A DNA stretch of 63,311 nt, counting the filler, from Platydemus manokwari (Eukaryota), in NCBI GenBank assembly GCA_037951405.1. It is 6 parts of 6 records of this genome, joined end to end, with 100 filler letters (N's around TTAATTAATTAA, not from the genome) between each part and the next. Parts side by side here need not be neighbours in the genome. Positions count along the whole stretch, not along the records: positions 23,979 to 34,539 come from JBBMOY011124108.1; 5 more parts are not named here. One strand, written 5' to 3'. The translations under genes were made by a program, and so were the position numbers. Below are positions 11,810-40,199 of the stretch, in pieces; positions within the stretch are counted from its first letter, which is position 1, and each line of letters opens with the position of its first letter. Under the pieces are notes generated by a model that was given only the letters and a program-made list of their open reading frames with translations, was not told the origin of the DNA and made no database searches.

Positions 11810-14800
11810 GTATAAAACAATTCTGGAAAATTCATTTAATGATGAAACTATTGTCACAGAATATACCGAGGAATACAGAGCTGGAATAAAATCCATGGTC
11901 GGAATGGGTTTAACAGAGAGATTTCCAAAAGAAACAACCGAATTTCTTTGGGTTGGAATTCTTGATTTTATTAATTTTCCAGTAAAAAATAATAATAATT
12001 TATGTTAACATGAATCGAAAGTTTTGATAAAAAATGAACTTCATTGTTAGTGACTCTATACGTGTTGGTTTCCTATTGAAAGAATATAATTTAATTGTCT
12101 CACGAATAAGGTTAAAAATAATAGAATGTTACTATTATCATTATTATCATCGATCAATCGTACTGATAAAAATTCATAATATTATTATGAAAGGCGTCTT
12201 TAACCAAACCATAATCAGTAGCAAATGTGAGTGAAATGAAAGTTGGTATGAATCCCCAATTATCAAATTCTTGAGTAAGAGATTTAAAACAAAAATGAAA
12301 CCTGTACTAGGGTTTGTTTGAAACCAATTTGAGATATATATCTCCAAACATATAAACGAGAATACACAAACATGACAAAAATATCCATTAAAAGCAATGC
12401 AAAGATAAACACAAAATTTAATAAAACTTTGAGAAATACACATTGCTATACATGACCATATAAACATGCTCAATTCATTGAAAATGCTAAATAAAGAAAT
12501 AAAGATAAAACTATTCAATTAAAACCAGCACACTGAAAATTCCAATATAATTAAAAATCTCTTTTAATTTGAATAAATTGCCTTTTAAAAGCTATTGTGC
12601 AACGAAATTAATAGGCGCTAATTTGCGATTATCCACGTTCAACCACTTCTCAGTAATTGCTTGTGAGAATGGGTGAATCACAGACCATTAAAAATGTTAG
12701 CTGCCAAAATTTCTTCGTTTTTAATTTTCAAATCAAAAGTCATGTTTTCAACAGAACAAAAACTATACATTTTAAATATACCAATTTTCGAACAAATTTG
12801 AAAATATTTAACATTTATTTACATGAGATTTGTCTTCTTTTTTGATTCAAATAAAAAGGCTCTAATTTTAATTTTTTATTTAAAAGATTTAAATTTTACT
12901 TTTAGTAATTTAAATAATTTTTAAAATTGAGAGATTAACATTAGTTTTTTAAGCAAGATCATTTTATAAATATCAATATGGTATATTTTTTTAATATAAT
13001 TTTTTAAAAATATCTTTTAACTCAAATTTTTATAATTTTAATCTTATTCCAATTTTAATTATTTATCGCATTTTTAAATAAACCTCACAATAAAATAAAC
13101 GCTTGGTGCTTTTCGTTGTCTTCGCTCTTCGTATTTATTAAATACTGAATTATAGATCCTATCCGATATTGATAAGGAAAATAGATAATGAAACCGGTCT
13201 AGAGATAAAATACCTGTTATGACTGGTAGTAGTTCAATCAGCAAGTCCTCACGACCTTTCAAATTATTATAATTATTCAAAGTCAAATAAAATAAACAAT
13301 ATTCAAATTTTAAAATACTTCACTGAAAATAATCGTAATAATTTTCTATATTGTCACAGGAATCAGAGCAAAATTTTCAATATGCATTGAAAAAAGCAAT
13401 TTTCGATTATATTTTACTAAATAAAAAGGAACAAATTCGCCTGGGTTTACCTATGCCAGAAAAAGTAAGCGCTTGAATATTATATGAAGTCCTACAATAA
13501 TAACTGTTTTAGCAATCGCTTTCTGTATTGAGAGAGCAAATGCCTTGGCATGAAAATTGTGACAATTCCAAGAATTCTCTACAAAAATACGGTTATTTTA
13601 CACATTGCGTTGTTGTTAAGTTATTATCCAATTTCACAAAGAAGTATTGATTCTTATCCACTAATAAATTGATTCCAAAATCCTTTTACTAGATATTGGA
13701 ATACTAGATTGATCAATACGCAGGAAATCCGTGATCTGGCTCCAGTCTCATTGAACGATCTGGTTGTGATGTGCGAAAATTATTCGATAGCACAGAGTAA
13801 ATTTTTGCAAGAAAATTGGATGAAAGATTGTCAAACTATAATCAATGCAAACATTGACACAATAGAGAGTATAATGCCTAAAGATCCGGTTATAATTTTT
13901 ATAAAAATTATGAGAATATTGATGGAAACTATGACGATTATGATAATAATAATAATAATTATTATTATTCCAACAGTGATATTCCTATTAATCTAAAATT
14001 ATAATCATTGAAATTATAATTAATATCAAGGTGATAATATTATAAATGATATTGATTATAACGAATAATATGAAATATAATTAAAATCATGGTGATGATA
14101 CTTCAACTCTAAAACAAGGTAATGTAAATACTTAATCTTCTGTTGCTGTTTTTCTTATCAGTTATCCACTTTAATGAATTATTTGTTTTAATCATAGCAC
14201 ATGTAATTTCATTTTGATCTCATATCAGCTTATCTCTCATATTAGTGCAGCAAATAAAACCGCGCTACACAATTAATTTTTTATATTACTGAGTTCCAAC
14301 ATGACGAACATTTTTTAATTTAAAATTCGCGGGTTTATATTTTCTTTCCTTTAATTTCTTTTAGGTTGGTTTGTACCAGTGTCACATTTTATGTCGGTAT
14401 AAATTTACATTTGAGATTATCAAAACAAAAAGTGTTTTTCGAATTTTTCAATGTATTATTTTGTTGAGAAAAGAAGTTATACTGAATTTTGTTTTTGGAA
14501 TGATATTTCGAAGGCAGAAATACTGAAGATGTTGCCGAAGGTCTTCGATAACAAGGCTATATGAGTAGTATAAAATGTTCATGGCTGTATCACATTTTTA
14601 TTTAATCTGTACTGTTCCATGTTTCTATTGGGCTTACTGGTTTTTGTATATGCGAGGTTGGTCAATACCTGTGTGTTGTTGTGTGGCTGTTCCTTTTTAC
14701 AATTATTGCTTTCCATCTAACTATGATTGGTTGATTGCCATGAATGTATGGTTGTGTAAGCATGTGAATGCTTAAAGTGCTAAAACAAAGATTCCAAGGT

Positions 14801-17800
14801 TCAAATCCGTTTTTCTTTTGCAGGATTTCGTCTCACTTAACACAATAATTTGAAATATTTATTTGGTGTTGTTATTCAAATTGACTTCCCAAATGATTAG
14901 GTTAACTTGTAAAGCTTGAGTTATTAATTCATTAATATGTTCAAATATTAATGAAGACTAATCACGAATCGATTTTGACCAATATATTAACATTTTTGAA
15001 ATGAACCATTTGAATGACATTTAAGCAAATGGTTATTATATCGATTTTTTATTAATTGAAAATGCAAGTCGATACTATTTTATAAAATATCGCATTGAAA
15101 ACGAACTAAGCCACGATCCAAAATATATATTTTTATTATAATTATTAAATTAATATCTTATAAATATTTTCAAATTTTATTTATAAATTATCACATGGGT
15201 TATTACTGATTTATCACTAATAAAAGGAATTGATTTACTTTACAACGAATTACGATGAATAAATCGTCGATTATTTTCTTTTATTATTAACAAGGTATAT
15301 TTATTAACTTAGCAATTTATAGATTGGCCATACTAAAGAGATGCAAAAATACTTCAACTGTGTAGCCACATTACAATCAAATATTTTGAGATACATTGTT
15401 CGATGTTCGATTCAAGAATTTATCGATCTGTTTGAAGAGTTTAGTGATGTCATTTGTTATGAAGGAACATATGATATGTTCTCTGGATTTGCAGTTTCAG
15501 ATAAAATATCGATATTGAGAATTCATCTGGTAAGCGATTTGTTCTCACTTTCGTCAACTCTCAGAAATTCATTTTCGATTGCTGTAGATAGTCTTATAAT
15601 GTATTACTATATAAATTTATTTATTTATTGTGATATTTAAATGTCAATCTTTTGTGTGAGTTTGATGGGCATTGTGGGATGAGAATGTTAGAGGACCAAT
15701 ATATGAGTATAAACAAATTAAATTATTTTAATATATATATCTTGCGCTCAAATAAGATCATTTTGACAGGCATTTGAACCAATCATTTTTTTCGATCCTA
15801 AATTTAATTTAAGTACAAAAAATTTAAGTATGCAAAAAATTAAATAAGAATGTTTTACTTATGAATTTCCAATACAAAAAATTTCGAAATTGTTTATGTA
15901 TATTACAAGTTATTTTGGAGAACTCTAGTGGAGCATAGTCAATACATACATTAGTCCAAATTTTAATCGAAAAATATAGTTCTAAAATAAATATTAAATA
16001 TGATACTTGACACTGGAAATCGCCGGTCGACTGGTTTGTAATGTGAACATAAGTTGAATATCAAGTCCTCAATCATTGATTCAAATGAACGTCAGTGAGT
16101 CTTATTCGGTTTTTTATTTGATTTATTTTAAATTGGGATAGAATGATTCACAAGAATATGTTGATAATTTAATAGGGTTCCTTTTGATAGCACATCTCAA
16201 CAATAAAAACTTATTTCCATTCCAGAAATTCGAGTGTTTTTCTTCATTACGATGCGATATCAATTCGATGTCGTTTGTTACAATTTTAATTACTATTTCT
16301 AAGTTCTAAATGCATCGCACGTGGTTTTTTTTAATAAGAAAAAATTTGTAAATTCTTCAAATTCATTTTCCCAGTATGGAATAAATTTAAAAATCTTTAT
16401 TCTACTTTTCTTTTAGTGAGCCATCTAACTTCTGTGCGATTAAGACTTCAAATTCAGTGTCTTATTTATAGAAATATAATTAATCTATGATGCACTGCTA
16501 CTGGTCTCATTAAATTTGTATAATAAGTTGAAAAAGAATTATTTAATACTTCTTGCTGAATAATGAGAAGAAACTTTTGTTGACAGTCTTCTTTCCAGGT
16601 TCTCCCTCTGTTGTAATTACAGATAACTATTCTAAAGGCCGGTTGTTTTCTTCGTCTAAATATTTTTTCAATCCAATATGGATATCGTTCCCTTCTGAAC
16701 ACCTTTGTAAAAGTAGAATTTTTGGAAATTCTTCTTTACTGAATAGTCGTAATAACCACCTTTACAACAATAGTAGTAGTACATATAGTTTTTGATAGTA
16801 AAATTGTTCTTCTCATTGCTCATTAAATTATTGTCTTTTCTGATTTTTTCTTTATTCTCCATATATTTTGTAACAACAATAAAAAAATAAAAATAAAAAA
16901 GCTAAAGTTAAGATAAGGGATTCCAAAATAAAATTTTAAAAACCATGAGAGTCTCGCTAGAATCTGAATAATTGTAGCAATTATATTTAATTATATTATT
17001 TAATTTCCCTGAATTTTTAAGCAGTAAAAATTGTCCTAATTTGAAATATTAAGTTAAGGATGATTAAATATTGGAAACATTCAAAAATATTTTTTTTCTG
17101 TAAAAATGTCTAAGTTGGCTAATAATTTATTTTTTAAATAATGATGAGGACTTCTCTTTATATAAGAAGCGAATTAAGATTTTTCGATATAATTTAGTTT
17201 CCAAAATTTTTAATTTTCTTAAAAATCTTTAATGTAAAAACCATAATAAAAATATTCATTCACCATTAATTTATGAAAGCAGAAAAAGATTATGAGATAA
17301 TTTTTCATAATCTAAGTCGATTTATTCGTCCAGTCATGCAGAGCCATTTCAAAGTCTCTAAGAATTATTTTTTGTTAAAATTCTAATTCTACAGTTTAAA
17401 CAATTAAACTGGTGTTGAAATTTCTAAAACTTAGAAATTTCAAAGTTAATACAGCGGCCACGTGAATGTATCGAACGACGTGTTACAAACCATTAAATCA
17501 GATAGTAATCGAAATGTCAAATAAGTAATGAAAATATCTCATATTTTTTCAGAATGTCGACTCAACAGAAACTGCTCAAGTTATTTTTACACCAAGTTTC
17601 GATCGAATTTGCGATCAACTCTGTCAAATCATTGACAATATGATTGGATCAGTAAGTCAATTTCAAAGACTAGAAAAAGTTCTTTTCATACCCGTAGAAG
17701 GCGCACCTTCATTACCCCATATATACAGCACATTGTGCTATGAAGAGTTTGTAATTTTAAACAAACAGAAACTAAGGGATTATGTGATGCGCAACAGTGA

Positions 17801-20800
17801 ATCACCAATGAAGTGAGTTAAATCTTAGAGATCAATAATTTTGACTCATTTGATAATATATCAGGTACTCGATGATATATGGTAAATTCAAATATCTTTT
17901 GAACAAGAATGCCGAAGAAAGTGCAAATCAATTCATCAATTCGGATAGACATTTACGTGAATATGAAACTGAACTGGAAAAATTAAAATCCCTTGCAGAT
18001 GAAGCTGCTGATTTATCGATGTTTCTACCGATGAATCTTTTTTTCCTTGACTGTCAGATAATAAATCAGGTAATGAAATCATCACCATAACGTAAACAGT
18101 GTATTCATAATTCTTAATATGTGAATCAGTGGCTCCTTGATCGGGAAATGCAATTGCGAATGATCTATTTGAATCATATGACGAATAAAAGTAGAATCTT
18201 CAATCGATCGATATGTACTCAGTACGACCAGATTGTTCGCAAAATTACCAAACAGTCTGAATCAACTTCTCAACTAGTGGAACTTCAAAATTATATAGAA
18301 AAACTCCATACCGGTGAACTTCTATCATTGAAAGTAGTAGTTGTTATGTGTAAAATATATTTTTAAAAATTCTTCAGACAAAATTGGATAAAGCTGCTAA
18401 GAATGTCTTATTTTTAATGAGCTATGCGATTCTCCCATCAGATGATATTCTTTTGAACAATACAACATTCACATGGGAGAAACGAATTATACCAATATTA
18501 GAGAGCTCGTAATTTTAATTTTTTTAATTTTTTTTTAACTTTTAATAATATTACTGAAAATTAACATAAATGATTAGAATTATTTGTATTAAATTAATTT
18601 TAAGATATATTTCAGAACATCACTAGAATATTTTTCAATAAATAAAGTTCATAATTTCACATCCGTTCAGATAATCTGTTGTAGAAGACATAAGTCGAAA
18701 TATTGGTGTGTGTGCATATATAGTAAATATTTTAAAAATATTTTCTTGCCTTTAGAAAAATACGGACAGTTGAAGTTGATGGCATTGTCTTTGATTAATT
18801 TTCGTAATTACACACTATAAAATTACACTACTAAATTACAATTATCAAGTGGAAGATATAATATTTTTAAAATATATGATAAGGAACACTTTTATTGAGC
18901 GAAAGAAATCTAAATTTGTTTTTGATTCTTTATCATATTTAAATGAGATAATCGATTAAAGTTACAATTAATTCTGTTCTGATTGTGTGGTCTTGCCTTA
19001 AAATAGAAAAATGATTTCTTTACATAAAATGTTAAAAAAACATTTTAAAAAGATAGACCTGAAATTACGTTAGCAATATTTATGATGTTTGTGGCAATAA
19101 TAGCAGCAATAATCGTATTAATAACATCAATAGTAATAGTGTTAATAATAATGATGATGATGATTAATAACGGTTACCTAATATCAGATCTTTAGGTGAA
19201 ATGCAAATCTCGTTAACTACAAGTGATTTTAAAATATCATTCACAATTCATGTCTAGTCGATACGATCATTTTAGAGGTTTTCTTTTTATTCGCATTATT
19301 GTTCTTTATTTTAGTAATCATTAACATTGCAAACGAGTTCAGTGGAAATACTTTATATTTTGCGTAGTTCAAATTAGGATGCACGTACTCTTTTATTGGG
19401 ATATTTAATTAATATTTTCAGAGTCTATAATTTGACAAAGGAGCACGAGCGCGCTCTAAGTAAATTGGAAAACTGGCAAAAACAATTTCTGGCAACACTG
19501 ATCGAAATGAAAGCTCAGATCAAAGAGTTCAGTCAGAGAAATCAGCTTAACGAGGCCGTCGAGAATGATTTAGAATTGGATAAGATGGGCGACAGATTGG
19601 AACAATGTATTGAAGAAGTATTAGTGTTGTATTTGGCTTTTAATGTTTTTTCCCATTATTAAATTGCTGATCAGCGATTATTGAAATACATATGAACATC
19701 TATACAAGCAATAAATTGAAAGATGTGGCTAATTATATATGTGAGGTGAATATGAGCAAGTTGACATTGAATTTGTTGGTTTGTAATTTCAATTTATATT
19801 GACTCGTAAAGAAAATAACTAAAATGTCATGTCAATAAGCCATCTGAAGAGCTTGTCAGTGAATCGATGAGCACGGTATCATAAACTTAAAATAGTACTA
19901 AATATCTCAGAAATTAAATTTGTTTTTCAATGTGATTAATTGCAGTTTTTAAATTATAAATATCGTGTCATTTTAATTACAATATATTTGGAAATAAAGG
20001 TTCTCTGATACAGATTGAGTGTTTAAATATTTATTTTCAAGGAAATTTGGTTATCTAAAAATATAATTTGTTTTGAAACGAAATATGTTTTCCATATTAA
20101 AAAAAAAGTTAAATATTTTCATTGTCATCTCAATTGATGTGAAATTAATTATGATCAATTCATGAGGCCAAGCTGCTATCGTAGAACTAGTGAAAGTATG
20201 ATTGATGAACATCAATTATTAGTTTTGTAAATGCATATTATTTTAGAAAGAAGCAGTTAAAATAATATTTCAGAGTTAATTATTGATTTCGCTTTTTAAT
20301 TTTTTTATCATTTAATTAGTTGTATTTTATTTTAAATTTGTTGTTTGAATATTTATGATGTAAATGAAAACACTTCATTTTTAAAAATTATTAATTAAAA
20401 CGTAATATTACACTCTCATATATATATAAATCAATAGTTTTCAACCAGGATTCCACCAGTACATTACAGGAGTTCCACAATTTCTAAATTTTTAAATTAT
20501 AATAACGAACAAATAAACAACATGTTAAATTCAATTTCGAAAATCTATCCACATTTAACAATTACTGGTTGAAAAGGAATATCCTGAAATTGACCAGAAA
20601 GTTTTTCGACTTCTTGTGCAATTTTCAACTTCATATTTATGTGAATTTGGATTTTCAAATATCATAATCATTAAACATAAGAAACGAGTACAATTGCTGT
20701 CTGTGGAAGACGAACTTCGTGTGTGTGTGTCAAAAACAAGACCGAATCTTAAAGAGTTGTGCAGGAAAAACCAGGCTCAAATTTTCCACTGAGTTTTTGA

Positions 20801-22468
20801 TAAAAATAAATTTAGTCTATTCAAAGACGTATAATTTTGTTTTCATTTCATCTACATCATTTACAATACTCAGACAATAAATACTTTTATTTCATTTTAA
20901 AAATGAATGCAATTTTCTGCATAAAACAATTAAATTATTGCACAGAGGTTCCTCAGGCCAGAGGAATGTTTCTGTGGGGTTCCTCTCCAGCTAAAAGGTT
21001 GAAAACCACTGATATAGATAGATGGATTTTTCGTTCAATTTATAAAAAACCACGTTGTTATGTTATCAAAAAGTCAAGAAATTAATGAAATATATTAAAA
21101 AGATTTAGATGTCAATAATTTCATTTTATCAAATTGTATATTAATCATAAAGTTATTTTAACCTGCCTAAAATTTTCGTTTTGGTTTTCTTTAAATTCTT
21201 CACAGATATTGATGAGATTATTCGTTGTAAATATGATTCAATTAGATGAAAACAGAAAATGTATCTCACTCATTGCGAACAATTTCCCATCAAAATTTGA
21301 TTATGCATATCTCTTTTTGAATGTTACATACATTTTTTTATGTAATAAATCGGAATATATTGATAAACTAACTATTACTTAATTGGTTAATTTTATTTCC
21401 TTAAAAAACGATTACAAATTATGTATTTTCAGTCTAATAACTGTATTTTTTTATAAGCTTATTTTTTAATGTAGGAACGAAACTTATACTAATATATTGT
21501 TTGTATTTAACTAATTTACTTTAATTTTGGAGTCAATATTTCGGATTTGTTCCACTCTTGTTTATAATTTCAGAGTTAAAGATTAGACATAATTTATCTC
21601 TATTTTATCGAGATACATAATTTGGAAAACTGTATTAATTTATAAGGAGTATTTCATAATAGTATTTGATAAATAATTATAGTTCTCTAAGAACAATGAA
21701 GTAGGCTTTCAGACTTCATATAAATGAAATTGAATTATATCCATAAAAGGAATCACGTCCAGTATTGTTAATTGCAATTCTCACATCTAATTATAACATA
21801 TTAAATAAATAGAACGAAAGATGGCAGAGAACTAGAGTCGGCACTGTCATTATATAGTGTTTTAATGAAATTATGTTTAGCCACCGATCTTATTGATATC
21901 TTAATACGATAAGGGCCGTATAAACTTTTAACTTAAAGTCATAAATATTTGAAATTTGTATTGATGTAACAATCTCTGAATCAGAAACGACTGATAAATT
22001 ATGAAGAAATGCTACTCAATACTGGTACTCAATCACCTTATTTTCAATTGCAAGAAATTCTGACAATTAAAGAACCTTACGATCGTTTGTGGAAAATTGC
22101 TGTGAGTTATCACAAGCTCTATGATAAATGGATGAATGGTCCGATTCTGGAGGTTGATGCTGAAGAAGTTGAAACGGAGGTCAGAGGGATTAATTATTTT
22201 TGAAATTAAAGATTTTATTTAATAGACTCAAAGTCTATGGAAAACAGCATACAGACTAACAAAGGTGTTCTCGCATCCGGAATACAAGGGTCCAATGAGA
22301 TGTGCTGCTACTATCAAAGCAAAACTTGAAAAATTCAAAATCAATTTACCCATAATTCAAGCATTGTGTAATCCCGGATTGAAACAGCGACATTGGGATG
22401 ACATGAGCAGCAAAGTTAATAATTACATAATAATTATTATTGATATTATAATAATTATTATATTCGTG

Positions 22469-22533
<65 letters not shown>

Positions 22534-22914
22534 GGTTGGTTTTGACATTACTCCGCGAATTGATACCCCACTTTCCGATATGCTAGCAATGGGATTGGAT
22601 AAACATTTAGAGGATCTTACCGAGGTTTCATCAAAAGCAAGTAAAGAATTTTCATTGGAGAAGGTAAGTACAGATGTAGCAATGACACATTTATTGTTTT
22701 TTCAATAATTTAGGCATTGATCAGAATGAAGAACGATTGGCAAGAAGTTGTTTTCAATTTCACTCCATATAAAGAAACTGGAGTGAATATTCTTTGTGCT
22801 GTCGATGATATTCAAGTGCTATTGGAAGACCATCTTGTCAAAACGTCAACAATGAGAAACTCTCCATTCATTGGACCATTTGAAATAGAAATTAATGATT
22901 GGGATAAAACTTTA
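11810..22914 (+). CDS. Axonemal inner-arm dynein heavy chain (DNAH3/7/12-like), partial: tail to start of DHC_N2/linker. Exons: 11810-11951, 13360-13464, 13513-13643, 13693-13888, 15323-15529, 17553-17812, 17865-18069, 18130-18333, 18378-18508, 19422-19617, 21985-22179, 22226-22414, 22535-22663, 22714-22914
   Basis: All introns are GT-AG with matching phases. Motifs YALKKAIFDYIL..KEQIRLG, MPWH, INYEEML, EPYDRLW, LCNPGLKQRHW, ASKEFSLEK, VDDIQVLLEDHLVKTSTMRNSPF. Truncated at both contig ends; exact paralogue not resolvable by eye. Confidence 0.92.
20432..21011 (+). mobile_element. Non-autonomous hAT (Buster/Charlie group) element in a dynein intron, retaining the transposase C-terminus
   Basis: TIRs CAATAGTTTTCAACC / GGTTGAAAACCACTG; 8-bp TSD ATATAAAT/ATATAGAT (nnnTAnnn); internal frame EYPEI...FSTSYLCEFGFS...KHKKR...VEDELRVCVS...QAQISH*. 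Confidence 0.9.
22415..22534 (+). repeat. 120-nt dynein intron largely made of an (ATT)n microsatellite
   Basis: GT...AG boundaries, perfect ATT run ~22469-22531. Confidence 0.9.
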
Positions 22915-23878: not shown

Positions 23879-23978
23879 NNNNNNNNNNNNNNNNNNNNNN
23901 NNNNNNNNNNNNNNNNNNNNNNTTAATTAATTAANNNNNNNNNNNNNNNNNNNNNNNNNNNNNNNNNNNNNNNNNNNN
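23879..23978. other. Artificial contig spacer
   Basis: N44-TTAATTAATTAA-N44. Confidence 0.97.
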
Positions 23979-24769
23979 TTTGTAAATAATGACCACGTGG
24001 TGTAGTTTTTCCTTTACAATCGTTGTAAAATTTAGAAGCAACAGCCTTCATTGATCTTGTTGATTTCGTATTGTTTGGAGATTCCATGTGATTAACTCGT
24101 GCATGATGACATTCCTTAGCACCAAAATCTCTTTCCTGCATGATTGAACTTGGCTTTTTGAACGAAATCTCCTTCTGAAAGGGCTTTCTTCATTTACTTT
24201 GAAATACTGAATGATCATATATTTTTGTGATGGCTTTTATCGGCGTCGTCGGAATAAACTTCTCAAAATTGACAGCTAGCTCTCTTCGAAAGTAAAAGAC
24301 TCTTTCAATATAATAAAACATAAGGAGAATTTCGTGAGTAATTATTAATGCATGTTTTATATTGTTTAGATAATGGATTTATATTTGATTATATTATTGA
24401 TCAGATGTACAATGAACTCAGTTCCTTCGAATTAAAATTTCCCTTAAAATGTGTTTTCACCATTTTCATATTTTAATAATTAAAAATGTCAATAGTTCAT
24501 AAATTCGATAATAGTTCAATAAATAATATGACAGATGGTCAAGAAATGATTATCGCTAGAGAAAGAACTTATGGTAGGCAATGTATTAATGAAGACGGAA
24601 ATTATATGAAAGGGCATTTGAGATTAAATAATTACTGAATAACGTACTCAGGTGATCCCGAGAATGAAACAAATCTTATCAATAAGAAGTATTTCAAATA
24701 AGAAAGAAAGTATTGATAAACTTGAATAATTATGTGAATCAACAATAACCAGGATAAATGATAATAAAA

Positions 24770-24955
24770 ACATAAATAAAACGGAACTAAAATTAATCTC
24801 TGAAAAACTTAAGCATTTGAAATTCATAAAAGGAAAAACAAAAACAGAATTTGTCGAGCCGATGAAGAAAAAATTTGGAGTCCTACCTGGAAAGCAAATA
24901 TTAGGCAAACAGAAAAATCTCATTAAAAGTAGGAAAAATATTAAAAATAATTGAC
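24770..24955 (+). mobile_element. Possible pogo/Tigger (CENP-B type HTH) transposase N-terminal remnant
   Basis: ISEKLKHLKFIKGKTKTE...KKFGV loosely resembles a CENP-B-type HTH; no downstream DDE domain seen. Confidence 0.25.
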
Positions 24956-25163
24956 AGAAACTATTAATGATTTAAGAAAATTAATTAATGTTTATACTGT
25001 CGACGTACGCCATATTGTAACACTGTGCCATTAGTAATTTTTAAATGGTGATTACTTCTGAAAAATAAAAATAAATTCCAGTTTAGATTTTGATAATAAA
25101 ACATGCTAGTCTTTATTTTATCTATGAAATTAATTTATTTATTAGTAGCGATAAAAATATGTT

Positions 25164-25281
25164 GTTCTCTCTTAGCAACTGGTTTGACTACAGCGATCAA
25201 CAAACCATTCATTTCTAAAGCGCATAACGATAAATTCTTTGACTGAAACAACAATTGAATGATACCGGTTGCCATGGTATT
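25164..25281. promoter_or_regulatory. Two RFX X-box-like motifs
   Basis: GTTGCCATGGTATT (25268-25281) and TCTCTTAGCAAC (~25168-25179) vs consensus GTTNCCATGGNAAC. Confidence 0.4.
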
Positions 25282-25478
25282 GTTACGTTTGTAATTTTAT
25301 TTTTGTCATCTTCATGCTTTGCCAATATTTATATTTATTTTCATGATTATCGAAATAATAATAAATATAATTTAAATAATAATAATTATTATTATCATTT
25401 TCATAAAATAACAACGAATAATAACATTTAAGACACATTATCGATTACCGTTATTAAATTTCCAAATCAAATGATAAA

Positions 25479-26054
25479 TTATTTTGGATCCGGGATGAAT
25501 GCCGCATTATATGCAGGTGGATTCCCATAATATTGATATGGTTGCATATTTGGATAACTGCTCAAATATTGGGGATAAGGAATTTGACTTTGAGGATAAG
25601 GTGCTTGAATTTGTGAATAAGAGGTTGGACAATGTGGATAAGCAGTCTGGTCATGTAAATAAGAACATTGGCCTTGAATCAATTCATTTTCGAGTGTACT
25701 TGGAGCAGAATTAATCACTTCAACAGTTGTTGTTCCACTGTGTAAGAACCGTCCTCTTCTCTGGATACCCGTTCTCTCGGAACAAATACAGCCACGGCAA
25801 ATTGCGATTACAACGGATACAATAATGATGACAGCTGCCGATGCTATTATTCCGCCAGCAATAGCAGGTATGTAATAGGAATTACATTCAGGATGAGGAT
25901 ATATACTACTCTGACAAGTATAACAGCATCGCATTACTCCACAACAGTAAAACTGGCATCGAAATAAACTATTTGGACAATATTCATATCCACTGATGGT
26001 TGTGGTAAAGATGAAAACAATAACGAATATAGTCATGCCTTTTCCGATCGCCAT
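25479..26054 (-). CDS. Shisa-like / WBP1-VOPP1-type single-pass membrane adaptor, intronless
   Basis: Signal peptide, Cys-rich ectodomain (CPNSLFRCQFYCCGVMRCC), TM helix followed by CRGCIC, Pro/Tyr/Gln-rich tail with PPAY motif; ATG at 26054 or 26036. Confidence 0.85.
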   Translation of the reverse strand: MAIGKGMTIFVIVFIFTTTISGYEYCPNSLFRCQFYCCGVMRCCYTCQSSIYPHPECNSYYIPAIAGGIIASAAVIIIVSVVIAICRGCICSERTGIQRRGRFLHSGTTTVEVINSAPSTLENELIQGQCSYLHDQTAYPHCPTSYSQIQAPYPQSQIPYPQYLSSYPNMQPYQYYGNPPAYNAAFIPDPK

Positions 26055-28190
26055 TTCCAATTTTTAATTCAAAATCACTAAGTAAAAGTGTTGATTAAAA
26101 CAAAAAATAAATAAATTAATCTCCAATGGAGTAAAAATTTCTGACTAGTTTTAAAATCATTTTATTAGAGATTTATTTAGCCAATGAAATTCTTTTTCCC
26201 TTGTTGGGGTGTTGTGTGGGGATATTAATATAGTATTGTAATATATCTATACAATTAATAATATGTTAGAATTATTATCCACATTCAGTTGTTCCAATAT
26301 CGATTATTGGTGTGTCCTTGTTATTCAATTAGAAATGGTAGAAATTCATTATTATTATAACTAATAAAGCGGTCATATTTACAAATTGCAAAGTAATTCT
26401 TATCAACATAAAGTATTATGATAAATATGATGACTCGATATTTATTTATTTCTTCTCAAATCCAACCCCAGTTGTTAACAAGCAGCTTGGGCTATTATTT
26501 TATTTTTAAAACAAGATTTAATATTATTATTTTCAACTTAAAAACAATTTAGTGCTTGCCGAAACATTTTAGTAAATAATTCCATGGTGTTAACCCACTT
26601 CAGACCTTTTCTTGTCAATGATTTTTTCCCAACGATTTTGTCCGTCATTCACAAAATTATGGATTTATTCGAATTTATAAATAATCGATCAAAATATTGG
26701 GCTAAATAAATAAATATTTTCATTCTTCATAAATATCTTCTACTTGTTTGAAGGACAATTGAAATGTTTTATTTTAATAACCAGAATCAATCTGGAAACT
26801 CTCTTTCTTGTAGAGTTAATTTCAGTTTCAGTTCAGGAAACTAGATGATCTTATTTTCCAAAATAATGATTCTATTATAAATGATTTCATGTTTTTAACA
26901 ATCAATAATTGTGAAATATTTTCATGATGTTTGGAGATTCTCTCATTGACAAATTTGAGTTTCATTTTTAATTTCAAATTTCGCTATTTCATTTATATCT
27001 TTTCTCTCTAAATTAAATAGTGCCCGATAATTCACAATAATCTACCAATTCTATAATCAAACCCCACATCCCCAAGCACTCTTTCTGGTTCATCGCATTG
27101 TATCTTTATTCGAACCTAGATAAAACACAATTTCATTCTTTGATATTTTAATTCCTCGATTATTAATATCTCAAATTTTTTCCAGTTCCTCATTCCTTTG
27201 TTTCACTGAAGCCAAAACCGATAACCAAATGAAGGAGCTCAATTCAAAGTGAAAATTCAAACATAAATCATATTACATTTAAATAAATGATAAAGAGAAC
27301 AAAACGATGATAAGCTGTTCAAGCAATTATGATCCGAATTAATAATAATTGATGTTGATCAAAAAAATATAAAGGTACAACAAAAAATTTCAAACAAAAA
27401 ATATCAGCTACTCAGTAGAATAAGCACAAGAGCATATTTTGCAAATAGATCAAATATATTGTTTTTTGTTTCTCCACTCTTCATTAGATATTTATTAATT
27501 CCAGTTTGGAATGCGTTTTCGAATTCATTCAGGATCGTTAATTTTGAGATGATAATCATGTAATAGAACGTTTCCTATTACTTTTGAATAATAAATTGAT
27601 TTTTTCCTATTAATTTTGCTTCTTTTAATAATTTACTTTTCGCTACTGTTTACTTTTATCATATATTGATATTGTGTGTCATTCCAGATAATCTGGTGAT
27701 TTTATGCCTATTTTGGTAGATGATCTTTCATGAGAAATGTTTATTTTATTATCATTTTAGAAATTATATCGTTTACAATTGTGGTTTAATTGTTTTGAAT
27801 CATGATATAAATATCACGCGGGAACATTTCTAATTGTAACATATTGATTTAAGGATTGCTTTCCTGATACAGTTTAAATATGAAGTGGTTCAACATACTG
27901 TTTCCTTAATAATAAAACAAATGAGTTACATACACATTTTCACCGTTAGTCTGATTCAATTAAAATTCTAGTAGTTCCGTCACCATGCATGTAATTGATT
28001 CCCTTCCATGGATCAAAAGGAACACACAAATCATATAAAAATACACCTAATAGAAATATAGAAAAAACATTGTTATTCTTATTTTTAATGAGGTGTTTTT
28101 GAAAAAGTTTAGCTCGTCATATTACATTAAGTGTTTTATTTATTTATACTTTTGTGGCATTAAGATCTGACAATTATTAATGACGTGGCT

Positions 28191-28442
28191 TGTTATATAT
28201 GTGAATAGTGTAGCGATCATGCAATGATTTTAAACTCATCTAGATCATTTTTACCACAAATATTATCCTCATATAGTATCGTGTACGAGGTGAAAGAAGA
28301 ACAAATAAAAGACTTTAATAGTTTGTAACTTAGGCTTGATTAGAACTCATAGAGACTGATCAAGACAACAGTGATCTTACAAGGATTAAAGAGACTGATA
28401 AGATAAAATAATAAAATAAACTTATAAGTCCTGAGCACAACA
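28191..28442 (+). repeat. Probable 5' LTR of the large Gypsy-type element
   Basis: Ends ...CACAACA immediately before AT-TGGTG (PBS), contains AATAAA; 5' TG either at 28191 (TGTTAT) or 28209 (TGTAGC); the partner LTR is not in the contig. Confidence 0.5.
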
Positions 28443-31400
28443 ATTGGTGTCCCAAGTGAGAATATAATTGGTTTAAAAATTTAATATAAATTCTGTAAAA
28501 TCAAATAGTTAGTCGAAATTTTTGGACCCGAGTGAGAAGTTAATAAAAATCCAAGAATTAAAGCTAGTTTAAATATTCAACAAATCGTGAACCGTAGTGA
28601 GGATAAAATATGTTAAAAATTTGAGAAGTTAATATTGGGTTCAATAATAAAGCAAAAAGTGAAGATAAATTTGATAATCAAAAATTAATAATAACTGGTG
28701 CTCGAATGGTTCAAGTTGCAAGTAGTGAAAATTGAAAATGGGGAAATTAAAAATTGAGAAATTAAAGTTAAAAATTTTAATAGAAATTAAAAATATAAAC
28801 TTTAATTATTGAGGATTTTATAAATTCATAAAGTTGATTTGAGCCAAGGAGCTATTATTGATAATTTGAAATTGAAATAAGGTCAGAGAAATAAATTAAA
28901 ACGCATTCGATAAATTTTTGCGTAAACCGGAGGGCTAGTTTAGCGACCCATAATAAGTAATTTCGGTATATAAAAAGAAGAAAAATAGATACAGTTTTTG
29001 CCTTAAAGTTAACAATAAAGTTAACAATTTTGAGAGACCTTACCCTGCTCTAAAAGTTATTTTCTGATTAAGATTTGATAGCTTGATAGTCTAGTTTCAT
29101 AATGAGTATTGATTTAGTTCCACAAAAGTGTTGATTAAATAATGTACGAAAGCGTTATTAGACTTGAACAATCTGATTTTGTTTTAAAGCTAATTTTACA
29201 TTAAAGGTAACTTTAAAAATTTGGCGGTTAGGGGGAGCATAAGAGATATTTTGCCTGTTTAATAGGATAAAATTCAGTATTAAGCATTGAGCGATTCGCA
29301 TTGAGCGATATAATTGATAATTTGAAATCCGCATTGACCGCATATGAATAAAAGAAATTCAATATTGAATAAATCTGATAGGGGATTACGTAATGCAAGC
29401 AAAAGCAATCTATTTGAAAATTTGGATATAGTGCATAAACATTTAGGAAAAAGGAGAAATAATAGTGAACTTGAAAATTATAGTGAAATAGAAAATAATA
29501 GTAGTGACAGTGAATTAGAATAATAATTATTTTGATTAAATACAGCCCAGTAATACTAATCTACCTGAGATAAGTGAAGATTCGAATTCAACAATAATTC
29601 TAGGAGAGGATAATATTGAGAAAACAAGTATCATAGAAAAGGATAGTAAAATGATTAAGAAACACAATATTACAGAAACAGGCCCACGAATTGACATAGA
29701 TAGTGAAATAATTGTTTTAGAAAATATTGTAAAGCACCATTAGACAAAATGAATGAAGCAATTGAAAATAATTTTGAACTTAAAAAAATGTGTTTTCCGC
29801 AATAAATTCCTATGATGGTAAACAAGAATGGTTTGATGATTTCTTCAATGAATATAATAGAATCACTAAACCATATGGCTGGACTCAGGCAGAACGATTT
29901 CTAAGGTTGTCATTGTATTTAAAATCATACGCGTTGCAAATGTTTCGAGTATTAGATTTTAGTGAAATTACGAATTAAACAAAATTCGAAGAGGAATTAA
30001 AAAGAAAAATAAGTTAAGGAAAGTGATGTACATGAATTATATGTGAAACATTTTAATGATAGATATCAAATGTCTGGAGAAAATGCAGAGAATACTCATT
30101 GCCATTAAAAGAATAAGTAATTAAGACTTACAGCAAATATTGATTTGCTGATGGGCTTGAGCAAATGGTAATAGATCAATTTTATAGGAGAATAACACCA
30201 TTATTAAGAAGTCCAATAGTATTAGCAGAATGTAAAATCTTGATGAGTTATTTCAAAAAGCTAAAAAAGTTGATATAATTTATGAATCAAATACAATATA
30301 CAATTATAATACTATATACAATTATAATACTAGAGCAAATGATATGAGTAGAATTCCACTGAACAAAACGAAAGCAATAGAGAATATAACAACAAAAATA
30401 GTTCAAATAAAAGAAGCAGAAGCTTATATGATAGAAATAATCACAATAATTGGCAAAATGGGTATTACAGTAATAATAGTGGATCTGTTGATATAATGAC
30501 AAATAAAAATTACGAAAACAGTTAATACCATATAATGGGAATAGGAGTTTATCAATAGAAAGATCATTAAATAGTGACAATAGAACATAAGTATTTAATC
30601 ATGCAAGAGATAAGTTAAATAGTGATGGAGAAGTCCAATGTGAATACTGTAAGCGAACAACACACAATTACATCATGTAAATTGGGAAGAGGTCGATATG
30701 ATAGAGAAATACAGCAGTAATGAAACATAAGGAAGACATAAAAAGAGGAATACAAGAACAAAAAGATATACATCGAGAAATCATGAGAAGAAAAAGAGCA
30801 GAGGAACGAAAAAAGATGCGGGAAGAAGAACAGAAAAATAGTTGGACTAAAAAGAGAAAGGGAAATAAATAGGAAAAAGAACTAAGTAAAGAAATAAAGA
30901 GTGTAGAAAATTTGTGGAAAAAGAAAAACAGGAATATCAAAATTAAATTAAAAATTTAGAAAAGGAAAGAGAGGAATTACAAAGAAAATCAGAGGAATTA
31001 AGGTATAATGAAATAGATCATGGTAGAAAATTAAGATACAGGGAAATAGATTATGATAGAATAAGAAGAACATAAAATAAAGATAATAGAGATGATAATA
31101 AATACTAAAGAATAAGAAATAGGAGAACTAAAGAAGACGAAGTTGAAAACATTAGACAGGCATTAAAAAGAAATTCATGTTTCAACTCAAGCCAAGAAGA
31201 AGAAAATATATTAATAAAGGAATGTAGTTGTGGACTGTACTTGTGTAGTGAAAGTAACAATAGATCATGTATAATGAAGACAATAAAAGGAAAAGTAGAA
31301 AAAGTACAATAATTAGTCAGGTATGAAATTTAGAGAAGATCAGAAAAATGATAAAGGAAATACAATTACAAGCAAGAGAGGGGAGAAAGTTAACAGAAGA

Positions 31401-34400
31401 AGAAGGATAAGCATTACAAGAATGTGCAAAAATAATTAGAATTTAAACGGAATTGCAAAAACTGTTTAGATTAAGCATTTGGAAATTCATGGAAGATAAA
31501 GATTATCAAATAAAATTCCCCTTAGATGCATGCATTAATATTAAGAAAATCAGGAAAACAATAATACACCAATTAGATGAAAAACATGGCATAGTAGCAG
31601 AAGATATGGTAACAATATGTAAAATAAAGGAGTTAGGAGACAAAGAATATTTAATAGATACATGATTTTCACAATATGATCCGATAGTCTCTATGCACGA
31701 ATTAAAAAATACATAAAATGTAAATCAGTAAATAAAAGAGAATAAATTGAAGACAGTAACGATACAGATGACGAGGATAATAGAGAAATTTGCATGTTAC
31801 TTAATAACTGAGCAAGACAATGAGATAATAGATAATTTGATGACCGAAAGTCATTCCATTAGTATTGCACCTGAATTTCAGTTTAAAGAATCTGCAAAAC
31901 CTGTTTGAAAACCTCTTGTTTAGAGGAATATTATGCCGATAAAAATAATGAACCGATAATAATAAGGGATATATAAAATATGGTTAAAATAGAAGAACAA
32001 TTTATAAAAGAATTACATCTACAAGCAGTAATTAAAGATGTTATGATACATATACCCTATTCACCAGTGGAAAAAGGAATTAATAAAATAAAAGACAAAT
32101 TAAAGAAAATAAAATAATAAATATGATGAATAGAGAAGCAACTGGAATAAATCAACCATCATTAACGTAAACAATAATAGGACTAGTATGTAAAAGAAGA
32201 ATAACAGCAGAGGAAAAGGCTGAGATATAAATTCAAATGCATCAGTAGAAATGATAATAAATGAAATAAATGGAATTTGGCCATTTGAGAGGGATAAAAG
32301 AAAATGTGGAGAAGATAGAATATGAGCAATACGAGGACAACAATATATTAATGTAGAAATAGATGCAAATGGAAGAAACGTAGAATTACTGACGGAAGGA
32401 GTGCTTATGTGTGGATAATATTTAAGTTTTTATCTGATAAATAAGAAAGAGGAAAATAAATTTAAATTTTGGTACTATCCACTAAGTGAAAAATATGAGA
32501 AAGAAATAGTGATCACACTAATAGAAGAAGAATTAACACATTATATAGTGAAAATAGACATTGAACCTAATAATTACACTGATAGAATTACGATACATGA
32601 GTTAGCATACAAACATTGGACGATGAGAAAAGTAAATGAAGGAATACAAGAACAGTATATTTATCAGATAGAATTGAATGATGTTAAAATATCATCTACC
32701 ATATATCATCATAAAATATCATCTAACTAGGAGTAGATAAAATTAAGCTAAGAGACATATTTAAGGAAGATAAAATAAATCCAATAAGCGTAGTATTCAA
32801 GTCAGAAAAACAAAATTACACAACAAAAGCAGCCCATGGAGGCAATGGAAAATAAATATGATAACTTTTCAGAAGGAAAATAACCAGGAAAATGAAATGA
32901 AAAGAAAATAGAGATAGAATTAAAAATGATAGATGGATTTGGCACTGTATTAAAAAAATTGTTAAACTTTAAATTACAGCAAACGGTGGAATATCTGAAG
33001 TATGAAATAGATCAAATCTGGTCATTCAGGAGAGAAGGAACTAATAGAAGATCATATAAAATAGATATAGGAATGTTAATAAGTAAAAAGGAACCCTTAC
33101 TAGAGGTAACTTTGGAGTTGATAATAAAAGGGGTTTTCTTGAATGAACACCAATTGAAATACTATCAAATAGATGCAAATAAATAAAATAGGATAACAGC
33201 AATTATAATAACTTGGGATAAAAGAATCACTAGTGATAAGGATAATATTAAATTACCAATATGGATATTAGGATCATCTGTATATCAATTAAAAATGAAT
33301 ATGAGAGTAAAAAACAAGAATAGAAATTACTGATGAGCGGAAATGCCTCCATTAAGCTGTTTAAAAAAATGGGTATCTAAACAAACATGAATACCACAAG
33401 AAAATACATAGTAAGATGGAAAAGCATACCAAGAAGAATAGAACTTAAATATGAACATAAAGGAAATTTGGAAAATATTGGATGATGAATCTCAATTCTG
33501 GCATCATATTTTAGAAGTAACTGGGTGGAATAGTACAGGCATTGGACTAATAAGATAAGAAAATAGATACATAGTGAAAATAGAAGTATTAAATAGATAT
33601 AATGATGGATTAAGAAACTATAGATTAATCAAGAAGGATAAAAATTTGAAACAATTGAAAAGAAATATAGAAGAACAATATATAAATAGAATGGAATAGG
33701 GATTAAGGTAAATAATTATGAGGCATAAACAATGACCATTAGTAGAAGAGAAAGATCTAAAAAATATATTATTGGAAAATTAAACTAAAATAGTAACAGT
33801 TAACATAATTGAGCCAATGCCAATTATCCCCAGAACAATGCCTTCGATACATGTAAATTTGGACGTATGTTGGAGATGTAATGACAAAAAAGTCATAAGG
33901 TTGGGAAAAAAAATAAGGAAAAGGAAACAATAAATGGCAAAGTTAATAAAGTAGAAAGAATAGAGATTGTAAAATATAGGAAAAGCAAAGAAAGAATGTT
34001 TAATATACAATGGTCAGTGGATTTGGATGAAATAATAGATGAAGTAGCAAGTGGAGACGACAAAAGGAGCAATGTAAAGAGAGAAACATAAAAGAAGAAA
34101 AAGAAGTTAAAAATACAGAAGATACTGAATCATTTCGAAAAGATTTCATGAAATCTATAGAATCACTAGAAACATATAAGGTGAACAAGCAAATAAGAAA
34201 ACAGCAACATGAGTTAGGAAGTTGTATGGTATGTTTGCAAGGACAATATCATGACCCATATTTTAGAAATCAGAATAAGAATAATAATGAACGAAATAAT
34301 ATAGAAATCAAAAAGGTGATTTATCCATACCGAGAAGAAATAAATTTGACTACATCAGAAATGAATAATGAAGATAAATAAGAAGAAATAATTTATGATG

Positions 34401-34480
34401 AAGAACATATGCAACAATTACCAGTATCCCCATTTGAATTTCAACCACAAGAAAATTATGGTTATATATTAGGTGTATAA
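28191..34480 (+). mobile_element. Large degenerate Ty3/Gypsy-type retrotransposon, 5' part: LTR, PBS, long leader, gag, coiled coil, ubiquitin-like repeat array; pol not reached before contig end
   Basis: Gag capsid pattern SYDGKQEWFDDFFNEY...YGWTQAERFLRLSLYLKSYA (29790-29978); CEYCKRTTH..C knuckle at ~30639; strongly A-rich plus strand with continuous decayed coding texture. Confidence 0.8.
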
Positions 34481-34539
34481 CCTTAAAATTTCGGTTTTTT
34501 TTGAAAAATATTTATTTATTTAAAGTACATTTTGCATAG

Positions 34540-34639
34540 NNNNNNNNNNNNNNNNNNNNNNNNNNNNNNNNNNNNNNNNNNNNTTAATTAATTAANNNNN
34601 NNNNNNNNNNNNNNNNNNNNNNNNNNNNNNNNNNNNNNN
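34540..34639. other. Artificial contig spacer
   Basis: N44-TTAATTAATTAA-N44. Confidence 0.97.
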
Positions 34640-36685: not shown

Positions 36686-37393
36686 TACATCTGCTAAGAT
36701 ATTGATCCCTCCATTTAGTAATTAACTTATTGATTGATTCTATTTAATAGCTATTTAACTCATATATACTACCAGGTCATGGAAACCAATTAAAATTCGA
36801 TTTTAGCTTCATGGGAACATATATCTATAATTCTAACAATCACTACTACAGTTTAGCTTGGTTAATGTCGAATTAAATAAAAATAAATTTAATAATTTAT
36901 CTTAATAATTTCTTTCATTTTCGTTTTTCAATTTTTTAATTTTCGTTTTTTTAATTTTTTTAATCTCTCCAATTTCAATTCTTCTTAAATTTATAGTTCA
37001 CTTGGTTTATGTCACTTTTTCCGTCGAAAAGATATGATAATATCAACATCATTCGATATATATTATTAGTCGCCATGATTTATTATCTGAGTTTCATATC
37101 TACCTCTGATTGTATATCACTAGGAGTCTGAGTTTAATTAAGGATTGATGAATTGCTTTTTGGTAGTGGTGAATATTGAAGAAATCACAATGCGGTTTCA
37201 ATTGATTCTTGTCATCTTAATTATTTTATTACTCTTCCACTTGATGATTAATATTATTAAAGGCTTCTCTTGTTGGGATCTGAAATATTGCTTCCACATA
37301 CTTAGAGCTTGTGATAGTTTAACTGAAATATTATCTATTTATATAAAGTATTATTATTAGAATAATTATGAACGAATGTTTTTCTTTTTCCAG

Positions 37394-37995
37394 GAGTCAC
37401 GATACAGGCTTGTAATCCAAAATTGGGATACGAAGTGACTCAAGTGCTATCAAATTACTATCCGGAAAGATTGGGTTTGGTATATTGCGTGAATACCAGT
37501 GCTCTATTCCAAGGTATTTGGAAAGCAATAAAAATCTTTCTCCATCCAAATACATCGAAAAAGGTTAAGCTATTGAAAAATAATGTCGCGAAAGAACAGT
37601 TTTCAAAGATGTTCAATCAGGAATTAGTGGATTGGTTGATCACTGAAATGAAGCTTAACAAAAGCAAACACATAACTGAATACCAAAAGCGGTTTTGGTG
37701 TTCGCATGAAAATCATGATCCGCGAGGTGTCCATAGTTACGTTCAGAATTATTGCCAAAAGATTCCAAAGAGTTCCAATGATTACAAACCACATCCGAAT
37801 ATTGTTGATGTTCTCACGGGCAAATTATCGCCAGATGCAAGTCTGAAGATTTTGCGTAACTCATCAATTAACGAAATATCATCACTGAAAAATGGATCAG
37901 AAGATTGCTTAGACGAATGGGAAAATCTCGAGGACGACGCCATTGAAATTCCGCCAGAATTTCAAATTTCCGAGCATTCTTCAACAATCAATTAA
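37394..37995 (+). CDS. Terminal exon of a CRAL-TRIO (Sec14-like) lipid-binding protein
   Basis: Strong acceptor TTTCTTTTTCCAG; LSNYYPERLGLVYCVN..ALFQGIWKAIKIFLHPNTSKKV motif; stop at 37995. Confidence 0.88.
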
Positions 37996-40199
37996 TTATT
38001 TTCTATTTGGTGTCATAACTGTTATAAATGGTGCTCTATGTACCGAACATTCACAAATATCGATATCTGCAATTCTTATTTCAATTGATTTATTCGTATT
38101 TTGTTCCGTATCATCACAGAGTTTCGTTGCTTTATATTCATATTTTTTATATGGAACCTGTCAATGGAAATATATATTCATGAAGATTTTTCGGGAAACA
38201 ATCTCAACATTTTTGACAAATCGGCGAATGGAAAATAGTTATCATTATTATTTTAGAAGTTTCAATTTAATTTCAATAAATATATCGACTTTTCTGTGGT
38301 GTTTTTGATTTATTGATTTTTTATTAATACTTTGAGATATGATAAAATTATCGATCCAGAAATATAAATAGAAAAATTTCGTTATTTACCGATCAATGGC
38401 GAATAGTCTGTTTAAACTGGAAACAATTATAGATAAATTGAAAATCATTTTATCTAGAATCTAAATGATTCTCCATATATAGTCCAGGAGATTCGGGTCA
38501 CTTGGTTTGCTTGTAAACATTAATATTCTGTTACTTGTAATTGAAATTGGTATTTTTTAAAAATTTTTGAAAACAATTTATCTCTCAAATATAAATATAA
38601 AAATCCATTAAAAAGCTCCACTTGAAAATTGATTAAAATTGGGTTTGTGGACTTTTATTTCTGCGTGTAATAATTTCTTTCTTTGTCAATTGACCTAAAA
38701 ATAAACTTATAAACCAATCGATTTTTGAAATTTAGCAATACAATAAATCACAACTTTCTTGCCTTTCATTTTTATTTGACAAAAACATTTTACCCAAACA
38801 TGCTACCTGTCGATCAATCGATTTCGAAAAACATGACACTCAAATAATTAACGCCGTTATCAAATATTAATTAAACTAATTCACACCGTGAAAAAAACAC
38901 GATTTTCGATATCATTGTCAATGCATTGAGTCGACACTTGAAATGCAGCCGTCGAACTGCAGTCTATATCATTTCTAAAAATAACATCATTTTCATTTTG
39001 GAATTTTAAGCTTTATTTAAATTAAAGTAACAGCAAAAAAATCAATATTAAATATCCCAATATCCTGCCGATGATTAAAATTTTAAATTGCAAACCTTTC
39101 TAATTTCTAGAAGTATGAGAATTCAGTTTGTCAAATGCATTCTTTATCGATCTCCATTGATTATTTTGATACCATTTTAGTTACATTCCACATACATACT
39201 TACTGAGACCTTCAAAATCTGATTGGATAACTTATTAATGATAGTTTATGTAATTAAATGATATTTATTTCTTTATACTTGATTTGAAATGTTGTGTTGT
39301 TTATTGATTTTATAATGTTTGTGTTTGGTTCTTGATATAGCATAGATTAGAAACAATATAATTTGGACACCAAGGCTTGTATTGAGTGTTCATAAATTAT
39401 TTAATTGAGTAAATTGAAATATCATTAAAATGTAATGATTGAACTATTGGAGATGTCGAGACAAAATGGCAATTTAAAAAATAAGCAATTCATTAATTGA
39501 CACAACTACCACTCAATTAAGTAAGCAAATAAATTATTAACAAGAGCTGTCTAAAATAAACTTAATTTAATGAAATTAACCAAACCAAATTTCGATTAGT
39601 TCCACAGAAATTTAGATCAAATTTCTTGCGTTGTTGAAAATTAAATGTGATTATCGATTAACAATATTACAAAAATAAATCTGCTAGTTTTGCTCGGTAC
39701 TTTATGAAATTCTGTACCTGCAACAGGCCGTTTAATTTTTGTTTACCGATTTTATCTGTGTTATATTGATGACCTTAGCATTTGATGCCAATCAATGTCG
39801 TTCCGTAGTTGAGTTAAATCTAATTACATGTTTTTAACTCCTGTGGATGGCAGATGCACACTCATCACACACAATAATTATATAAATATTAAAAAAATAT
39901 ATTGTTTTATATGTTGGGAAATCATAGACCATAGTATCTATACACCAGTTACCTTAGAATAAATACATACAAGCTACACATCCATTAATTTCATAATTAA
40001 AATCTTAGAACCCTGTGCCTTGACTATAATGAAGCGATAGAAACGCAATCAGTCCCTATAGTTTGTGTCCAGAATGAATGTAGATATTTTGAAAATTTCG
40101 AATTTATTGATTTTAACTACATATTGATCGATTTTTACACTAATACTTTCTTTTGATTTTGAAGAAATATTTTTATTGTTAATTGATATTCTATTTAAT

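Follow-up and report, generated by a model that had tools for sequence, protein, structure and literature searches.

Does the decayed coding stretch that follows a gag-like region in the genome of Platydemus manokwari encode a tandem array of ubiquitin-like (UBL) domains, and what might a retroelement do with such an array? The locus belongs to the part of our window taken from JBBMOY011124108.1 (positions 23,979 to 34,539), the window being the whole stretch of DNA analyzed here, 63,311 nt joined from six parts of assembly GCA_037951405.1. From the sequence alone, an earlier reading had described 31450-33830 as a portion of a retrotransposon polyprotein in which about seven diverged UBL domains follow Gag. 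We have examined this description with respect to the element that carries the array, the origin of its units, their likely fold and their possible function.

Setting and borders of the element

The window is AT-rich throughout (GC 23-39%) and also contains intron-split genes and scaffold gaps. The features that surround the array are as follows.

28191-28442, plus strand: LTR-like stretch of ~250 nt, TG...CA, with AATAAA at 28304 and a left border that we infer from contig depth
28445-28462, plus strand: primer-binding-site-like stretch that starts with TGG, two bases past the CA of the LTR-like stretch
28463-29749, plus strand: non-coding leader with short tandem repeats; coding signal absent (z 0.3)
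29750-30290, plus strand: probable Gag capsid region with stops and frame changes (weak homology and anatomy)
30639-30690, plus strand: single CCHC-like zinc knuckle, broken
30720-31290, plus strand: charged coiled-coil-like stretch, then a Cys-rich segment (~31170-31270), seen in translations; no Pfam family
31291-31374, plus strand: H1, a short, probably helical segment repeated as H2 (blind self-comparison, z 6.0)
33830-34480, plus strand: decayed sequence that continues to show a coding signal (z -3.6) and has CxxC pairs at 33868 and 34223; no meaningful Pfam family
34465-34539, no strand assigned: a repeat of very high copy number, probably distinct from the element and interrupting it (contig depth reaches 172,751 in the last bin, and contigs join or end loosely at 34465-34523)

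The left end shows a feature of Ty3/Gypsy LTR elements, namely a 5′ LTR-like TG...CA stretch (left border inferred) and then a primer-binding-site-like sequence, which we take to resemble a tRNA-Leu site. The window held no tRNA gene to set beside it and no second copy of the LTR-like stretch. A further Ty3/Gypsy feature, dispersed copies, is supported by 2353 contigs of one public sequencing run that match the stretch and fall into four identity classes (613, 563, 509 and 668). This was the one run listed for the stretch; no RNA run was listed, which has no bearing on whether the element is expressed. Contig depth jumps from 12-14 to about 1970 in the bin 28205-28439, within the LTR-like stretch, and reaches 33-4361 over the array as compared with 12-14 in the flank; depth here does not equal copy number, and the window itself may derive from this public run. 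Even so, repetition of the element is clear.

Beyond the leader, about 4.7 kb of decayed coding sequence extends to the very high-copy repeat near 34465, which is followed directly by an assembly gap (34540-34639). The purine share of the plus strand is 0.56-0.81 in 30 of the 31 200-nt bins across 28200-34399, and 0.47-0.54 beyond the gap. Neither pol nor a 3′ LTR of the array element was found in the window, where the element is interrupted at ~34465 and the gap opens at 34540. No relatives of the element were found in a word-based protein search, among 1.84 billion representative sequences or in metagenome and viral contigs, and an exact look-up returned 0 of 4. The stretch is the broken 5′ part of a repeated retroelement, likely of LTR type. 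As a separate observation, two contigs join the high-copy repeat to the LTR-like stretch at 28376, and this repeat may also lie inside other copies of the LTR-like stretch.

The gag-like region was compared with 19 open stretches from seven retroelement loci, and the top match was to a carrier of Retrotrans_gag (PF03732), covering 123 of 162 residues (SW 59, z 5.0, equaled by 1 of 200 shuffles). A five-row gag profile was weak on the same region, with 37 of 1000 shuffles scoring as well, and no Pfam match was obtained in 29750-30290. Judged by its anatomy and by this weak homology, the region is likely Gag. The placement of the array behind Gag in one element was upheld, as no N occurs from 23978 to 34540, so that the gag-like region and the array stand without an assembly gap between them, and a single contig without differences covers 30352-31604, from before the knuckle into U1; the Gag identity that this placement presupposes is itself likely rather than settled. 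The knuckle and coiled coil that had been described ahead of the array were recovered as one broken knuckle, matched by zf-C2HC_2 only at E 0.11, and a coiled-coil-like stretch. Only one CxxC is present in 29700-30720, and decay could hide further knuckles.

Elsewhere in the window, an ordinary Gypsy-type element is present as two diverged copies, 76-88% alike, at ~1450-4600 (plus strand) and ~59550-62320 (minus strand). It has matches to RT, RNase H and integrase, and neither copy matched the array element. The top match of a retroelement protease profile (13.3 bits, E 0.007) falls at 39399-39569 (plus strand), which is possibly another element remnant. An uninterrupted 596-codon frame at 55724-57514 (plus strand) contains TIR_2 (E 5e-19) and a weak SAM match, with a long, probably helical N-terminal part ahead of them. 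A CRAL-TRIO domain exon is located at 37372-37995 (plus strand, E 3e-14), and several frames of 100-230 codons occupy both strands of 7704-11418, with no Pfam family at 10449-11045. Exons at 13673-22708 (plus strand) and 53142-53755 (minus strand) presumably belong to a dynein heavy chain and an alpha-tubulin, respectively.

Coding signal and units of the array

As had been described, the region 31450-33830 is a decayed plus-strand reading frame, and it is coding beyond chance. Specifically, its read-through cost is 30, compared with 54.6 +/- 4.8 in dinucleotide-matched nulls, and none of 100 nulls was as low (z -5.2). The standard Gypsy element of the window gave the same read-through z, and two flanks gave 0.0 and 0.1. 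The minus strand of the array also costs 30 (nulls were drawn for the plus strand only), which is expected for a strand that lies opposite a purine-rich one. Upstream, the coding signal of 30720-31450 is z -2.3. All protein segments quoted in the sequence-only reading were present in the plus-strand translations, close to where they had been placed, and the array resolves into the following units.

31465-31707, plus strand: U1, probably ubiquitin-like, one stop (PDB and UBL-profile matches)
31941-32027, plus strand: H2, a copy of H1 and not a ubiquitin-like unit (self-comparison)
32171-32490, plus strand: U2 (type A), broken; homologous to U4, with its end homologous to the end of U5
32536-32810, plus strand: U3 (type B), one frame change; homologous to U6, putative fold, with no UBL signal when taken alone
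32899-33222, plus strand: U4 (type A), one stop; two halves fit the UBL profile in order, with an insertion of ~20 residues between them
33238-33522, plus strand: U5 (type A-like), broken by several stops and by frame changes; UBL profile, with frame changes placed by eye
33559-33822, plus strand: U6 (type B), four stops; homologous to U3, putative fold

The order along the array is U1, A, B, A, A-like, B. The tandem arrangement was borne out, but the count is six and not about seven, because what had been quoted at ~31675 forms the final strand of U1. A seventh unit at 31852-32114 was considered and rejected: its match to U3 was weak (4/1000), 1796 of 2000 shuffles reached its UBL-profile score, and a better explanation of the stretch is that it repeats the segment preceding U1. 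The absence of C-terminal Gly-Gly was confirmed, with none of the six units carrying it at the ubiquitin position after the last strand. We infer that the array and the gag-like region form one polyprotein.

Internal duplication

The array grew by internal duplication, and this is our firmest new result. In protein comparisons with X at the breaks, U2 matched U4 at z 7.2 and U3 matched U6 at z 9.1, in both cases with 0 of 1000 shuffles as good. Among the other 19 pairs, only the rejected seventh candidate with U3 approached this level (4/1000), and pairwise homology between type A, type B and U1 was not detectable. A self-comparison blind to the chosen unit borders (76 windows, 2539 pairs) placed 32452-32673 with 33481-33696 (z 11.3) and 32242-32439 with 32983-33171 (z 6.6) as its top two pairs. 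The match between U3 and U6 continues upstream across the linker and also takes in the ends of U2 and U5 (z 10-11.3).

A 29-residue repeat, H1 and H2, was also found before U1 and before U2, with 0 of 1000 protein shuffles as good and 58 of 84 identical positions in the DNA. U2 and U4 resemble each other as proteins, whereas their DNA does not stand out from nulls (52/200), which suggests old copies kept at the protein level, and no DNA-level tandem repeat spanning units was detected.

Evidence for and against a ubiquitin fold

In terms of fold, the ungapped match to ubiquitin that had been noted at U1 is real but weak, as 11 of 500 shuffles reach its score. When U1 was compared with 177,635 PDB sequences, five matches were obtained at E<=10, and the top four of these are designed ubiquitin variants, aligned without gaps over 49 residues (E 0.097-0.55). 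A gag piece drew a chance PDB match at E 0.11, equal to U1's best. No UBL-like PDB match was returned for the whole array, U4+U2, U6+U3, U5, U4 or U6.

In a six-frame scan with a narrow profile of 61 ubiquitin sequences, which was too tight, the U1 match came fourth with 2.5 bits (E 15). A wider UBL profile was home-made from fetched loci, with 31 of 44 rows kept after 13 doubtful or partial rows were dropped; the family of one row was checked against Pfam. Of 2000 shuffles, those reaching the unit's score numbered 0 for U5, 26 for U1, 30 for U4, 67 for U6, 191 for U2 and 866 for U3. The register was as expected in U1, U4, U5 and U6, with both halves of U4 fitting in order, and the helix-region pattern of ubiquitin was seen in U2, U4, U5 and U6. 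With loop-aware gaps, the score of U4 was reached in 22 of 500 shuffles and that of U5 in 1 of 500; among real-protein windows, none of 249 did as well as U4 and none of 262 as well as U5. Pooling by Fisher's method gave P 0.002 over six units and 0.03 without U5, values that are optimistic since the units were chosen by eye. All U5 scores rest on a reading with frame changes placed by eye.

HHalign scores were equaled in 4 of 100 shuffles for U1, 0 of 93 for U5, 1 of 85 for U4+U2 and 11 of 87 for U6+U3, the last in the wrong register. Pooled sets gave 0 of 74 column shuffles for U4+U2+U5 (48 columns), 1 of 93 when U1 was added and 0 of 82 for all six units. HHalign probabilities for the units were 1-11%, and the six-unit alignment varies with the mode and the pieces supplied, tool alignments of six single-frame pieces being out of register. 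Statistical support for a ubiquitin fold is absent for U3 and slight for U6.

Against these matches stand several negative results. The Pfam check that the sequence-only reading had proposed went against it, as no unit matched the ubiquitin clan at E<=10. With uniform gap costs, only U5 passed (2/300), with U4 at 136/300. In a blind window scan with the UBL profile, U1 ranked 10 and the units did not rise above background. A frameshift-tolerant blind scan ranked U4 at 4-6, U5 at 11-13 and U3 at 19-24, with U1 outside the top 25; its top score was an antisense frame of a host gene, and it located the borders of U3, U4 and U5 unaided within that top 25. AlphaFold, also proposed as a check, returned models at pLDDT 29 and 49 with no beta-grasp; in the U1 model (pLDDT 49) a helix stood in place of the expected strand 1. 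Foldseek with these models gave no match at E<=0.001, a result that means little because the AlphaFold models, made without an alignment, were uninformative. In the Atlas, the natural frame of U4 was protein-like (recognition 2805), its first matches (0.86-0.88) were unnamed, and no UBL family or cluster was returned for this unit.

The fold proposed earlier thus survives in part: U1, U4, U5 and the pooled sets beat shuffles, but a Pfam clan match and any excess in blind scans are lacking. On these profile comparisons we consider a ubiquitin-like fold probable for U1 and the related U2, U4 and U5, and the array as a whole is likely beta-grasp, with U1 and type A more strongly indicated than type B. 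The alternative that survives best is that the units are duplicated small domains of another or mixed fold, with at most U1, U4 and U5 ubiquitin-like and the remainder pattern matching on I/K/N/E-rich decayed sequence. The missing Pfam, Atlas and fold support, the background-level blind scans, the wrong register in which U3 and U6 fit UBL and the lack of detectable homology between types A, B and U1 all speak for it. We nonetheless regard it as unlikely, as each of U1, U4 and U5 falls into the register expected of UBLs, with the halves of U4 in order, and these tools give the probable gag no better scores, so that low power is to be expected on this decayed copy.

As an observation apart from the locus, 80 genome records of prokaryotes contain ubiquitin genes that are near-identical (84-96%). 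Some of these lie on contigs of megabase size, Dyella being an example, and many are probably contamination.

Comparison with known systems

The closest described parallel is the Burro/GYPSM1 group of giant Ty3/Gypsy elements from planarians, whose polyproteins, in the accessible portions of the source, comprise Gag, two to three knuckles, an Smc-like coil, MATH, one Ubi2/SUMO-like motif, BCL2, BIR, ankyrin and env; the authors propose that this cargo interferes with ubiquitination (PMC6431247). The Burro description (PMC6431247) thus already provides a UBL domain downstream of Gag. As in the accessible Burro account (PMC6431247), a probable N-terminal Gag and a knuckle here precede a coiled-coil-like stretch and a long accessory region, probably all in a single frame; a Ubi2/SUMO-like (PF11976) motif there is paralleled by UBL candidates here, and many copies and an AT-rich genome are shared. 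In contrast, the part of the Burro account available mentions one UBL motif and two to three CCHC knuckles, as compared with six candidate units and one CxxC in 29700-30720 (where decay could hide others). Burro measures 25 kb internally and over 30 kb in total in the same account, which implies LTRs of kilobases rather than the ~250 nt seen here; repeat depth begins only at about 28205, and a 5′-truncated LTR is possible. MATH, BCL2, BIR, ankyrin and env gave no Pfam match in the three plus frames, a search of low power on an element whose 3′ part is missing. With no pol in view, the element cannot be placed relative to Burro, and the likeness is one of description and not of Burro sequence.

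The earlier claim that such an array is undescribed holds in part: no six-unit UBL array was found in print, but a single Ubi2/SUMO-like domain is published for Burro in the portions of PMC6431247 available, and the original Burro paper, supplements or Repbase could already list several units. Neither 'ubiquit' nor 'SUMO' occurs in the accessible text of a review on retrotransposon accessory domains (PMC6338049), and the accessible parts of PMC13524379, PMC13238120 and PMC11410931 hold nothing on UBLs.

Among host proteins, USP7 has five UBLs that lack Gly-Gly and to which partners bind, a viral protein among them, according to the portions of PMC6502913 available. Its Ubl1-5 resemble the present array as tandem beta-grasp domains without Gly-Gly, the beta-grasp being only predicted here (PMC6502913, in part). 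Unlike the array element, USP7 is a host enzyme, a deubiquitinase that also contains TRAF and catalytic domains, as far as the available description goes, and no USP7-family Pfam or PDB match was found in the array. The internal duplications point to growth of the array inside the element rather than to capture of a ready-made one. With respect to ubiquitin and PF00240-type UBLs, U1 is alike in its ungapped alignment over 49 residues, whereas the units differ in falling far below family thresholds, in their insertions and in having no Gly-Gly tail. Coronavirus polyproteins, likened here by description and from partial sources, likewise contain non-conjugated ubiquitin-fold domains (the fold is a candidate one here); there, however, one or two domains (Ubl1/Ubl2) sit beside a papain-like protease in a different virus group.

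Possible function

Our preferred functional reading, to which we assign slightly less than an even chance, is that six self-duplicated ubiquitin-fold units without Gly-Gly, linked to Gag, serve either as a platform to which proteins of the host ubiquitin-proteasome system bind or as a decoy for that system. The long first reading frame probably runs from Gag into the six units, and the array would be produced in the same amounts as Gag. It would either stay on Gag or be freed by the protease of the element, and could then occupy host ligases, deubiquitinases or proteasome receptors, by analogy with non-conjugatable UBL arrays such as the USP7 tail. The missing Gly-Gly ends make conjugation, or cutting by host deubiquitinases, unlikely. 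A decoy or platform is favored on the analogy with the Gly-Gly-less UBLs of USP7 and on the ubiquitination-related cargo of Burro.

The main functional rival holds that the ubiquitin-fold units are purely structural, serving as rigid spacers or folding aids in a very long polyprotein or particle without contact to the host ubiquitin system. Strong divergence from ubiquitin, the large type A insertions and serial duplication with a conserved linker all suit such a role, and the beta-grasp fold is often a mere scaffold. We consider it unlikely in light of circumstantial signs of interplay with the ubiquitin pathway, namely the Cys-rich segment that adjoins the array here and, in Burro, cargo that includes MATH, BIR and UBL domains.

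Pestiviruses carry ubiquitin inserts that are used in polyprotein processing, and units cut by host deubiquitinases to process the polyprotein would give a comparable system, the cleavable-spacer role raised in the sequence-only reading. One Gly-Gly does occur at 32838, in the probable coding frame about 9 codons past U3, but no unit itself ends in Gly-Gly and the sequences are far from ubiquitin, which leaves this role disfavored and very improbable. An ordinary gag-protease layout, with the end of U1 a decayed aspartic protease and the rest unrelated cargo, has just as little to commend it: the residues just ahead of the U1 stop, which we take to resemble the start of a retroelement protease motif, are the only such site in 30700-34480, but they fall within the ungapped ubiquitin match, and neither a protease family nor an in-register protease-profile match was found in 31600-31929. 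This test is weak, since the protease region of the Gypsy element elsewhere in the window likewise escaped the profile.

Returning to the platform or decoy reading, its most far-reaching form is that a retroelement lineage grew its own six-unit ubiquitin-fold array on Gag as a multivalent decoy that shields particles from degradation, a transposon-made counterpart of the USP7 tail. We offer this form tentatively and regard it as rather unlikely. The present case is one decayed, truncated copy, and its ubiquitin fold is predicted. If the reading is true, a retrotransposon would spend about 800 codons of its most abundant protein on ubiquitin-fold repeats, and host protein degradation, not only small-RNA silencing, would restrict such elements. 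The suggestion, made in the accessible part of PMC6431247, that giant Gypsy cargo meddles with ubiquitination would then become testable with small single domains.
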